From a virus, in UHGV virus genome UHGV-0171543: 19,658 bases of DNA; one strand, 5' to 3'. The translations under genes were made by a program, and so were the position numbers. The notes beneath the pieces were generated by a model. The model made no database searches. It was not told the origin of the DNA and saw nothing but the letters and a program-made list of their open reading frames with translations. Positions 7,411 to 10,626 of the stretch are shown one piece after another (position 1 is the stretch's first letter; each line of letters starts with the position of its first letter).

Positions 7411-7620
<210 letters not shown>

Positions 7621-7708: not shown

Positions 7709-8425
<717 letters not shown>

Positions 8426-8432
8426 CACGTAA

Positions 8433-8870
8433 ATGATTAAAGAACGTATTTCTTATATCATTCCGATTGCGATGGATGAAGGCAACCCCGTAACTCCAGT
8501 TCTTATCTATGAAATGGATAAAGACTCCCATGAAGTGGATCTGTCATTTGGCGCTTTTTTTATCGGCCTTAAGGCTACAAAAAAATATTCCATAGGCATT
8601 GAGGTTTTCAATGCTCAAGAAATACCGATACCAATTGACACAAAACTGTACTCCAACCATAAGTTTTTTACGGTAGCAGAAGCCAACGATGGAGAAACCA
8701 TCGTATCAACTTCTATGAGAATTAACTTCCCAAGGGTGAAAATTATCAAGCCTGGGATATTCGAAGTTAGAGCATCACTGGTTAATCCTGAGAAAGGCGA
8801 AGTAATTGATGTAAAAAGTTCGTTTTTTGACGTGAAGATAACAGGATCAGTTCGCGATGAGTTTAGATAA
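8433..8870 (+). CDS. Hypothetical protein A of a two-gene cassette at the rexA position (unknown function)
   Basis: 145-aa ORF starting 7 nt after the cI stop, same strand. No TM segment and no motif I recognise. Confidence 0.7.
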   Translation: MIKERISYIIPIAMDEGNPVTPVLIYEMDKDSHEVDLSFGAFFIGLKATKKYSIGIEVFNAQEIPIPIDTKLYSNHKFFTVAEANDGETIVSTSMRINFPRVKIIKPGIFEVRASLVNPEKGEVIDVKSSFFDVKITGSVRDEFR

Positions 8871-9228
8871 CAAGGTTGCTCAGCTTCGTCCAAATCAAAA
8901 CATATCTCGCCCAATTGGACACTATTACACTGATGATGCATACTCACGGCATGGTGGAGGAAACGGCGGAGGTAACATGCTTGAGGCTAGAGTTGCAAAG
9001 CTAGAGTCTGATGTTGAATACATCAAGCGCGATCTCGCTGAGGTAAAGTCAGATATAAAATCTGTTGATTCTCGTCTGTCAGGTATTGAGACAAGCATTA
9101 GCTCAGCAAAAACCACCATTAAGGCATCTGCGGTCGTTGTCAGTTTCGTGTTCGCATTTTGCGCCTACATTTTTGGAAGTTATGTTTCCAAAATCCTTGA
9201 TGCCTTAAACGGACTCATTCTTAAGTAA
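8857..9228 (+). CDS. Hypothetical membrane protein B of the cassette: Gly-rich linker, amphipathic coiled coil, single C-terminal TM helix
   Basis: 123-aa ORF overlapping gene A by 14 nt. An alternative start at ATG 8977 is preceded by GGAGGT and would give 84 aa. Heptad-like segment LEARVAKLESDVEYIKRDLAEVKSDIKSV, then hydrophobic AVVVSFVFAFCAYIFGSYV near the C-terminus. Confidence 0.7.
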   Translation: MSLDNKVAQLRPNQNISRPIGHYYTDDAYSRHGGGNGGGNMLEARVAKLESDVEYIKRDLAEVKSDIKSVDSRLSGIETSISSAKTTIKASAVVVSFVFAFCAYIFGSYVSKILDALNGLILK

Positions 9229-9235
9229 CACACAA

Positions 9236-9261
9236 CCCGGCCTCAGTGCCGGGTTTTCTTT
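9236..9261 (+). terminator. Rho-independent terminator closing the cI-cassette operon
   Basis: CCCGGC-CTCAGT-GCCGGG stem-loop followed by TTTTCTTT, 8 nt after the gene B stop. Confidence 0.6.
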
Positions 9262-9413
9262 GCCTCTCGATCCCCCTTCCCAACAACACATAACCATTTG
9301 TATTTATTGGAAAACTAATAGATAAAACTTGCTAAACAGTGCAATTCTGATCCCTCACCTACCTAACAATTCACCCCCTGCAAAAAATAAATCCATATAA
9401 AAAACATACAGAT

Positions 9414-9476
9414 AACCATCTGCGGTGATAAATTATCTCTGGCGGTGTTGACATAAATACCACTAGCGGTGATACT
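9414..9476 (+). promoter_or_regulatory. oL3-oL2-oL1 operators and pL promoter
   Basis: AACCATCTGCGGTGATA (9414..9430), TATCTCTGGCGGTGTTG (9434..9450), TACCACTAGCGGTGATA (9458..9474). pL -35 TTGACA (9448..9453) and -10 GATACT (9471..9476) with 17-bp spacing. Near-identical to lambda pL as recalled. Confidence 0.85.
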
Positions 9477-9720: not shown

Positions 9721-10029
9721 ATGACGGTAATCGTGTACGGAAAATCAACATTTGCAGGAAATGCCAAAACTCGCCGTCATGAGCGGCGCAGAAAGCTGGC
9801 TATCGAGCGTGATGCTATATGCAACATCATCGATTCGATCTTCGGTACAGACAGTGATGAACCTTTTCAGGAAAAACCGAGAAAGCGTTTAAATCTTTCT
9901 GAAAAAGCAATATCACTCAGCAACATTCGTAACCAAAATACCGATGAATGCAGTGGAAGTATTTGTCTTCCAAATGTAGCTCTTTACGCGGCAGGCTACA
10001 GGAAATCAAAACAACTGACGGCGAGATGA
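9721..10029 (+). CDS. N: N-family transcription antiterminator, P22 gene 24 type (arginine-rich motif)
   Basis: 102-aa ORF, first gene after pL, with GAGGA RBS. N-terminal GNAKTRRHERRRKLAIER is the P22 N arginine-rich boxB-binding peptide as recalled. Not lambda N. Confidence 0.85.
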   Translation: MTVIVYGKSTFAGNAKTRRHERRRKLAIERDAICNIIDSIFGTDSDEPFQEKPRKRLNLSEKAISLSNIRNQNTDECSGSICLPNVALYAAGYRKSKQLTAR

Positions 10030-10044
10030 TAAATCATTTGCTAA

Positions 10045-10626
10045 TTACTTGTTTTTGCCATGCTTATCCTGAGCGATAAGTTCATCCATAAGACTGTCTT
10101 TCTTCCCAGCAAACCTAATGTAGCACTCATTTCTATAGCGTTCCGGGATAACAAAACGGTCGATTTCAGGATATCCAGTAGCAGAAGGTATCCGAATAAG
10201 AAGCCCTTTTTCGAGCAATGAGATTGCTTCAGGGCTTCCCTTTTCTGTCTTTAGCTGGTTATTCGCGGCTACAGCGAATGCCAAATACGCTCTTTCTCCA
10301 AGAGTTAACGAATCAAACAAATCTTGCACATATTTTTCTTCTTTAGATTTGCGCTTCTGAGCAGCGGATACCTCAATTCTTTCAGTCACAGCGTGATAAG
10401 CGGAATTAACAACACCGTTAAGCACATAGCTAACGCAGAACAACAGGATGTAATACATCCAATAATGAGGAAGGATTTCTGGATTATGCAGGTTTATCCA
10501 TTCTTTTACGCTTACCGGCATAACAATAATCAATATGATCAGGATGATTAGCATATGAATCAACTGTTTAAGTGTCATTCCTTGCAGGAAAAAATGCATT
10601 AGTTCCTGCCACCATGAGTTGTTCAT
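10045..10626 (-). CDS. sieB: Superinfection exclusion protein B
   Basis: 193-aa ORF opposite in orientation to N, with an N-terminal hydrophobic segment (LIHMLIILIILIIVMPV). Matches lambda SieB as recalled. Confidence 0.8.
   Translation of the reverse strand: MNNSWWQELMHFFLQGMTLKQLIHMLIILIILIIVMPVSVKEWINLHNPEILPHYWMYYILLFCVSYVLNGVVNSAYHAVTERIEVSAAQKRKSKEEKYVQDLFDSLTLGERAYLAFAVAANNQLKTEKGSPEAISLLEKGLLIRIPSATGYPEIDRFVIPERYRNECYIRFAGKKDSLMDELIAQDKHGKNK

Follow-up and report, generated by a model that had tools for sequence, protein, structure and literature searches.

We analyzed a window of 19,658 nucleotides (nt), the virus genome UHGV-0171543, which is a mosaic lambdoid prophage of Escherichia coli, and focused on two small genes, called A and B in what follows, that lie directly behind its cI-type repressor gene. 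We propose that A and B form a two-gene exclusion module, expressed in the lysogen and placed in the rexAB slot, with B made in two nested forms; taken as a whole, we give this proposal an even chance of being right. It builds on the architecture of B, on the conservation of its two starts, on the structure of the operon, and on the synteny and mosaicism of the loci that carry the gene. Few places in a lysogen are expressed as strongly as the slot behind a prophage repressor, which harbors classic exclusion systems that are still poorly understood, such as RexAB and BstA. The A-B cassette belongs to an uncharacterized family found behind the repressors of many unrelated temperate phages across Gammaproteobacteria. 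Our analysis adds evidence for nested isoforms of B, as well as for a repressor-linked family that is broad and modular and absent from the current defense catalogs.

The open reading frame (ORF) of B is real, and its product of 123 amino acids (aa) can be divided into the following parts.

8857-9228, plus strand: gene B, long ORF of 123 aa from the ORF list, with a 14-nt overlap between its beginning and the end of A
8857-8949, plus strand: variable N-terminal tail, residues 1-31, predicted to be disordered (predicted local distance difference test, pLDDT, below 50) and present in the long form (B-long) only
8950-8976, plus strand: Gly-rich stretch HGGGNGGGN, residues 32-40, doubling as a putative internal ribosome-binding site
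8977-9228, plus strand: nested ORF of 83 aa (B-short), which is exactly the helical part
8977-9120, plus strand: coiled coil, residues 41-88, from heptad analysis
9124-9189, plus strand: single C-terminal transmembrane (TM) helix, residues ~90-111, with a Kyte-Doolittle peak of 2.1
9190-9225, plus strand: short C-terminal tail, KILDALNGLILK, conserved within its module type and probably periplasmic

A sequence-only reading of this DNA had described a Gly-rich HGGGNGGGN stretch, a heptad-like segment, and a single C-terminal hydrophobic helix, and had suggested TM and coiled-coil prediction as a check. Three lines of analysis agree with this description. The a and d heptad positions follow one unbroken register of 14 positions (L42, V46, L49, V53, I56, L60, V63, I67, V70, L74, I77, I81, A84, and I88), and the residues L, I, V, and M fill 81% of the positions in the coil register and no more than 44% in any of the other six. 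The hydrophobicity profile shows a single Kyte-Doolittle peak, of 2.1, at residues ~88-111. The AlphaFold2 model, computed from a 40-sequence alignment, has residues 1-40 disordered (pLDDT below 50) and residues 41-122 in one continuous helix (pLDDT ~80-91), which begins precisely at the internal methionine, M41. B is thus predicted to be a tail-anchored inner-membrane protein whose coiled coil lies in the cytoplasm and is followed by one C-terminal TM helix and an outer tail of 12 aa, the periplasmic location of the latter following from the absence of a signal peptide and from the long soluble N-terminal part. This architecture is no chance feature, since it is common to 76 database homologs and ~100 fetched loci. 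A sequence search of the PDB gave B only weak, generic coiled-coil matches, e.g., the tail needle gp26 (E = 4e-4).

The start of B deserves particular attention. The frame that opens with the ATG at 8857 shares 14 nt with A (stop codon at 8868-8870), a hint of translational coupling, and this ATG has only an AGGA 10 nt upstream (duplex of -4.1 kcal/mol). The ATG at 8977 has GGAGGT at 8968-8973, 3 nt before it (4 nt for the GGAGG core), with a duplex of -10.1 kcal/mol with the anti-Shine-Dalgarno (anti-SD) sequence. The sequence-only reading had seen both starts in this way, i.e., a weak SD and an overlap with A at 8857 and a GGAGGT SD at 8977, although it gave 84 aa for the internal product, which is actually of 83 aa. 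It had framed the two as a choice. Both candidate starts are present in the sequence and both are conserved, and the either/or framing is probably wrong.

To assess this conservation we used the 76 protein homologs and the ~100 loci, which gave 65 non-redundant B genes. The long start keeps its place at the junction with the upstream gene: in nearly all of 63 loci (~60), the long frame opens with an ATG placed anywhere from a 23-nt overlap with the preceding gene of the same strand to 6 nt past the stop codon of that gene, and the overlap is of the same 14 nt in gp45/gp44 of the Salmonella phage epsilon34. The tails span 21-59 codons (mean 37) and are always open, in 61 distinct versions, whereas the other two frames of the same DNA have 0.045 and 0.115 stops per codon. 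The 120-position profile of PHROG 6136 (phrog_6136, function unknown) matches B at 1.9e-45 and covers its residues 1-123. The conserved frame and junction argue that the tail is not a non-coding spacer.

The internal start is conserved as well. Among 51 distinct sequences the codon is ATG in 44, TTG in three, GTG in two, and ACG or GTA in two, such that the methionine was replaced by TTG or GTG in five of the seven non-ATG cases. An exact GGAGG lies 3-11 nt before the internal start in 37 of the 51 loci, against 15.3±3.0 (maximum 25) under synonymous recoding of the same peptides with local codon usage (2,000 trials), a difference whose significance is overstated because the sequences are phylogenetically related. 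The glycine codon four positions before the internal start (codon -4) is GGA in 31 of 47 cases (66%); the frequency of GGA is 4-23% at most other glycine positions, 5/12 (42%) at codon -6, and 14.8% in the background of neighboring genes. The spacing between GGAGG and the start is exactly 7 nt in 26 of 36 cases. Where the peptide motif is broken, the DNA still spells the SD: L003 and L004 have GGG AGG (Gly-Arg) before a TTG, and L056 has GAA GGA GGC (Glu-Gly-Gly), which also preserves the SD despite the loss of a glycine. The mean duplex energy is -10.1 kcal/mol at the internal start and -5.3 kcal/mol at the long start, the internal one being the stronger in 54 of 59 loci. These conserved signals lead us to think that both starts are probably used, giving nested B-long (123 aa) and B-short (83 aa) isoforms. 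A ribosome-binding site inside the Gly-rich linker would explain why gene callers disagree on the start, and its conservation makes B a clear, testable case of nested isoforms.

The main alternative is that a single start is used. This would be either ATG 8977, with an upstream frame that is open and untranslated, or ATG 8857, with the GGAGG being a by-product of the glycine codons or a pause site. In one homolog (P0055), the internal start is the one that a gene caller annotated even though the long ORF is open there, and the SD of the long start is weak. The exclusive use of the short form is hard to reconcile with 61 tails kept open over 21-59 codons up to an ATG that abuts the partner's stop, with their conservation as proteins within partner types, and with a PHROG profile that spans the whole protein. 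The exclusive use of the long form leaves aside the preference for GGA at codon -4 with its 7-nt spacing, the replacement of methionine by TTG or GTG in five of seven cases, and the changes from Gly to Arg and from Gly to Glu that keep GGAGG. Apart from the relatedness of the sequences, several points weigh against the use of both starts. The spacing of 4 nt between GGAGG and ATG in the window is at the short end of the range. SD-like glycine codons can occur without initiation. When the per-sequence SD duplex energies are compared with those of synonymous recodings, most single sequences are not significant; this test is undiscriminating because any run of glycines pairs with the anti-SD, and it was replaced by the exact-motif and position-specific codon tests given above. 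Around 25% of the representatives of the wider family carry Leu, Ile, or Val at the methionine site, as seen at the protein level only. Finally, the ratio of non-synonymous to synonymous substitution rates (dN/dS) of the N-terminal tail is 0.3-0.8, estimated from too few sites to indicate more than weak constraint. All considered, we find a single start a doubtful explanation and retain the two nested forms.

The genomic context of A and B in the window is as follows.

7411-7611, minus strand: cro, from the ORF list
7712-8425, plus strand: cI-type repressor (LexA/S24 family), first gene of the operon with A and B, from the ORF list
8433-8870, plus strand: gene A, 145 aa, beginning 7 nt past the cI stop
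9234-9265, plus strand: intrinsic terminator closing the cI-A-B operon (stem at 9234-9255 and T-rich tail), from the terminator scan
9448-9476, plus strand: PL-like promoter, TTGACA-17-GATACT, the downstream border of the cargo slot
9721-10029, plus strand: N antiterminator gene (PF25694, 136.8 bits)
10045-10626, minus strand: homolog of the superinfection-exclusion protein SieB, a 193-aa ORF just past N (PF14163, 90.1 bits)

The gap between cI and A is of only 7 nt, and the terminator scan found no terminator before position 9234 within cI-A-B. Hence, A and B belong to the repressor operon and, being transcribed together with cI, they should be expressed in the lysogen. In the terminator after B, a stem of 8 bp, 6 of them GC pairs, precedes a T-rich tail. 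This terminator is the counterpart of the lambda terminator Timm, which is annotated at the equivalent place in phage mEp234, and other cargo cassettes of E. coli prophages end in the same terminator sequence. The segment from cro to cI has 93.4% identity to its equivalents in the lambda-immunity phages HK106 and mEp234. The latter has hicA, hicB, and one hypothetical gene in the slot between cI and Timm (GenBank record); the same slot holds rexAB in lambda and bstA in BTP1 (PMC8585504). The contents of the slot in these three phages identify A-B as the cargo of a known mosaic slot. The prophage pairs a lambda-immunity set of cI, cro, and operators with a different N protein (PF25694): mosaic joints flank the cargo slot. 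This N protein resembles the type of P22 gene 24.

A prophage of E. coli UMNF18 is 99.8% identical to the window over the 901 bases around A and B; its annotation there lists a LexA family protein and, after it, two hypothetical proteins. The full cassette was found in 14 of 5,426 complete E. coli genomes. The UMNF18 prophage is defective (L002, around 9138-9212), since its cro is a truncated copy fused to genes for virion DNA transfer, its intS is frameshifted, and its replication genes are lost. It retains an intact cI-A-B, and this retention in a decaying prophage is consistent with a role beneficial to the host.

We then characterized the family of B. Four elements follow one another in all its members: a tail of variable sequence, a Gly-rich linker, a conserved core, and a variable coil that ends in a C-terminal TM helix. 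The core conserved across the family corresponds to the first 25 residues of the coil, MLEARVAKLESDVEYIKRDLAEVKSD in the window, and follows the pattern (M/L)E.R[VI]A[KR]LE[SA]D[VI].[YH]I[KR].D. In the coil, R45, V46, A47, L49, E50, D52, I56, D59, and D66 are conserved in at least 90% of the sequences, and G37 and G38 in the linker are nearly invariant across homologs. The core recurs in representatives of many phyla. A profile search among 1.84 billion representatives gave 171 matches at E <= 1e-10 and 2,235 at E <= 1e-3, the latter number being an upper bound only, inflated by long repetitive coiled-coil proteins. Some of these long proteins, which have ~900-2,400 aa (P0099, P0100, P0102, P0111, and others), contain 9-13 separate stretches similar to the B profile, with E values down to 1e-37; they are either genuine tandem repeats of the core or repetitive coiled coils that share its heptad signature.

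B itself is a mosaic. The identity of the tail follows that of the partner A (76/68, 47/44, and 36/39%), and the tails, while varying in sequence, show conservation as proteins among loci with one type of partner. The membrane module varies independently of them, with 12-20% identity to the homologs with the closest A genes and 70-84% to those with distant ones. There are at least four types of membrane module among the homologs of B. Within the type found in the window, residues F99, C102, F106, G107, Y109, and S111 of the TM helix are nearly invariant, and K112, I113, D115, N118, L120, L122, and K123 of the C-terminal tail are at least 90% conserved. In epsilon34, gp44 (L001, 3427-3738, 103 aa) has a tail and Gly motif as in B and, from around residue 42, a different and shorter module of coil and TM helix. 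The nucleotide identity between the window and epsilon34 ends within B (query position 582 of 901), which places a recombination joint inside the gene.

The upstream partner is more variable than B. In the window, A is a soluble protein of 145 aa with an all-beta immunoglobulin (Ig)-like sandwich fold and with neither cysteines nor TM helices. PHROG 5893, of unknown function, matches it at 3.4e-64 (residues 1-140 of 140 positions). A sequence search of the PDB gave no match for A, and the fold search gave generic Ig-like and carbohydrate-binding sandwiches together with uncharacterized phage proteins, and no functional lead. The gene upstream of B is a member of the A family in 44 of 63 loci, as identified with an iterated hidden Markov model. 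The alternative partner is a protein of 75-150 aa with the signature of a split zinc ribbon (CxxC…CxxCG), unrelated to A, which occurs in Vibrio, Shewanella, Pseudoalteromonas, some Enterobacterales, and one metagenome-assembled genome of Desulfobacterota (loci L005, L006, L008, L009, L012, L014, L018, L019, L021, L023, L024, L049, and L074-L076). A few loci have a helical protein in this position. The conservation of B while its upstream partners are swapped fits, at the level of sequence, with B being the constant, effector-like part of the cassette.

The link with repressors is broad. A phage repressor, with S24 and helix-turn-helix (HTH) domains or HTH only, precedes the partner in every enterobacterial context that we inspected, and a repressor (S24 and HTH, CI-type, or Mu-like) does so in five of ten distant loci. 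The genes upstream of the partner cluster with cI in 40 of 60 cases. The order repressor, partner, B is found in Escherichia, Salmonella, Enterobacter, Serratia, Vibrio, Shewanella, and Pseudoalteromonas. Not every distant locus has a repressor upstream: the position is taken by a SPOR/TPR protein in L019 and by an ATP-synthase-B-like protein in L024, and in several loci the gene has no Pfam match. A survey of lambda-like prophages of Mannheimia haemolytica described a gene with an XhlA domain and a single TM helix (161 aa) beside cI, and discussed it as a possible hemolysin or virulence factor (PMC4553209). Our results suggest that this gene belongs to the same repressor-linked class, with a hemolysin label that stems from the family name only.

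The best-known occupant of the slot offers the closest comparison. The abortive-infection system RexA/RexB and A-B share the place between cI and Timm/PL and are co-transcribed with the repressor (PMC8585504). Both are two-gene units in which a gene for a soluble protein precedes one for a membrane protein. B has a single TM helix and a long coiled coil, in contrast to the polytopic RexB with its four TM helices, and A is a beta sandwich of 145 aa, whereas RexA is larger and binds DNA. The earlier suggestion that B would be a functional analog of RexB without structural relation to it is supported on the structural side, where B differs in architecture and shows no match to RexB in PADLOC, and, for the analogy, in position, i.e., a shared slot and an operon with cI. 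We thus read A-B as a Rex-like two-gene module of the immunity operon made from unrelated parts. RexB can be expressed separately from the promoter pLit, so that the RexA:RexB stoichiometry is adjustable. The production of B-short from the internal start would give A-B a similar freedom of stoichiometry, the additional supply of the membrane partner coming from an internal ribosome-binding site for B and from an internal promoter for RexB.

Two in-frame starts in one small gene for a membrane protein, with a longer and a shorter product, are known from the holin/antiholin pair S107/S105 of lambda. The likeness extends to products with potentially opposed or graded activities. The starts of B are 40 codons apart, compared with two in lambda S; the additional segment is a disordered, partner-specific tail in B and one or two charged residues in S107; and B is predicted from its operon to be expressed in the lysogen, whereas lambda S is expressed late in infection. 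Other cargo of the slot, BstA in BTP1 and hicAB in mEp234/HK106, shares the location of A-B and is unrelated in sequence, BstA being a single large soluble protein and hicAB a toxin-antitoxin pair.

These comparisons suggest how the module might work. B-short, translated from the strong internal site, would form the bulk of a membrane assembly, and B-long, translationally coupled to A, would recruit A or its analogs through the partner-specific disordered tail. On this view the membrane part, B, would stay constant, and specificity or sensing would come from the exchangeable protein encoded upstream, i.e., the beta sandwich A here, and a split zinc ribbon or a helical protein elsewhere. A signal sensed by the partner might alter the assembly of B and either harm the membrane or block a membrane step of the infection, while the ratio of long to short forms could tune or restrain the activity. 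The module would act in the lysogen against an incoming phage, like other cargo of the slot, most probably through phage exclusion or abortive infection. By analogy with that cargo, we see a role of A-B in defense or exclusion as evenly poised between right and wrong. The more specific idea that B would depolarize the membrane, which the sequence-only reading had raised, is in our view doubtful. If A-B is a defense system, it would provide a tractable pair, a sensor of 145 aa and a membrane protein of 83/123 aa, for the question of how a cytoplasmic signal becomes a membrane event. A broader and more speculative view, which we think possible rather than likely, is that these cassettes form a widespread, undescribed class of defense systems in prophage immunity operons. 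They would combine a universal tail-anchored coiled-coil effector (Gly-rich linker, core of the type RVAKLESDVEYIKRD, and swappable TM modules) with interchangeable cytoplasmic sensors that dock on the disordered tail, and the ratio of the two nested isoforms would set the trigger threshold or provide prophage self-immunity.

Some observations count against a function in defense. The slot also houses cargo unrelated to defense. The PADLOC database gave no significant match to a known defense protein, RexB included; the best for B was a CorA-like protein (E = 0.0047, 15 bits) and A had none. The literature search found no paper naming these protein accessions.

Within a protective role, B together with A could instead act as a superinfection-exclusion factor that blocks the entry of phage DNA at the inner membrane, in the manner of P22 SieA or HK97 gp15, and neither kills nor depolarizes the cell. 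Prophage inner-membrane proteins such as SieA act in this way (PMC10883804). B is predicted to be a small inner-membrane protein expressed in the lysogen from a prophage immunity operon, and its conserved outer tail, DALNGLVLK, suggests a specific contact on the periplasmic face. Nevertheless, nearly all of B is expected to be cytoplasmic, with only ~12 residues in the periplasm, and the lineage-to-lineage variation of its soluble, cytoplasmic partner suggests a sensor more than a gatekeeper. Moreover, the SieB homolog in the window gives the prophage at least one recognized exclusion gene besides A-B, although a second system is possible. Hence, a pure block of DNA entry seems to us rather unlikely, and we favor a sensor and effector pair.

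The sequence-only reading had also likened B to XhlA-type and holin-like proteins, and many of its homologs are labeled "hemolysin XhlA" by NCBI. One could therefore suppose that B is a genuine lysis protein of this type, like XhlA of PBSX or SPP1 gp24.1, which permeabilizes the membrane with a holin partner during lytic growth. The similarity of layout holds: XhlA and gp24.1, like B-short, have ~83-89 aa (83 for both gp24.1 and B-short), a cytoplasmic coiled coil, and a single C-terminal TM helix (PMC6316719). Membership in the family does not. XhlA is among the top two Pfam matches of B, both weak, and the scores to PF10779 are 21.6 bits for B-long and 22.4 for B-short, under the gathering threshold of 34.7, while the positive control SPP1 gp24.1 has 53 bits. 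The Pfam model matches 26 of 41 members of the B family at E <= 0.01 (best 8.3e-6), but the unrelated coiled-coil model FlaC_arch matches as many. The alignment with hhalign of the B family to 29 true XhlA proteins has a probability of 88%, but it covers 28 coiled-coil columns only, upstream of the XhlA motif; the profile similarity is thus weak and restricted to the coiled coil. From the alignment of these 29 sequences we defined the invariants of XhlA, in the numbering of SPP1 gp24.1, as R21, E26, R27, D30, H32, D33, Q34, Q35, I36 … N49, T50, T51, W52, I53, K54, and R55. B has no equivalent of the RHDQQ or NTTWIKR parts of the resulting block, RTSDRHDQQI…NTTWIKR. It has, unlike XhlA, an additional tail of 40 aa, the Gly motif, and the family-specific core. 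In precomputed annotations the true XhlA carry PF10779 and the homologs of B do not.

The context differs as well. The genes for XhlA and gp24.1 lie in lysis cassettes, and these proteins are lethal only in combination with XhlB or gp26, a holin with two TM helices (PMC6316719, PMC6834076). No XhlB-type holin or endolysin adjoins B, whose neighbors are cI, A, the terminator, PL, and N, and the same is true in the homologous loci. B is found in the immunity regions of prophages of Proteobacteria, whereas XhlA is found in the late operons of Bacillota. The scores below the threshold, the missing motif, and the context of the repressor operon indicate that B shares the layout of XhlA and is not a demonstrable member of the family. 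It is improbable that B is a lysis protein of this type, and the names given to its homologs are unsupported and not to be read as a function. We also rejected the canonical holin classes I-III, understood as proteins with two or three TM helices, or with one TM helix and a large periplasmic domain, encoded beside an endolysin. B has one TM helix, a C-terminal tail of ~12 aa, and no adjacent lysis genes, and the match to a PHROG of holins/antiholins has an E value of only 0.0034.

Lastly, A-B might have no part in defense and modulate the lysis-lysogeny switch or the induction of its own prophage, as proposed for lambda RexA, or confer another trait of host fitness, and lambda RexA and RexB reportedly aid the transition from lysogeny to the lytic cycle (bioRxiv 10.1101/2021.04.19.439022); in spite of the tight linkage to repressors across many phage types, this is a marginal candidate, as neither A nor B has a detectable DNA-binding domain, B is predicted to be anchored in the membrane, and the free combination of A-B with unrelated repressor families argues against a repressor-specific regulatory role.

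Two further observations concern the slot and the coding region of B. A sigma-70-like pair, TGGACA-17-CATACT (9/12 matches), lies at 8916-8944 on the plus strand, inside the region coding for the tail of B. We rejected an internal promoter for a transcript with only B-short, by analogy with pLit, as sites of this kind are just as numerous in the region as expected from shuffled sequences. Next to this, the prophage of E. coli CRECJHTL34 (L111, 1500-2503) carries in the same slot a pair formed by a soluble protein of 106 aa and a protein of 227 aa annotated as "CCDC90 family", and the terminator of this cassette is ~87% identical to that of the window. No DUF1640/CCDC90 family was found among the Pfam or NCBIfam matches of B at E values up to 10. 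The protein of 227 aa resembles B in having a coiled coil and a C-terminal TM helix and in following a small soluble protein, whereas its sequence is unrelated. The association of a small soluble protein with a tail-anchored coiled coil may thus be a recurrent design of this slot.

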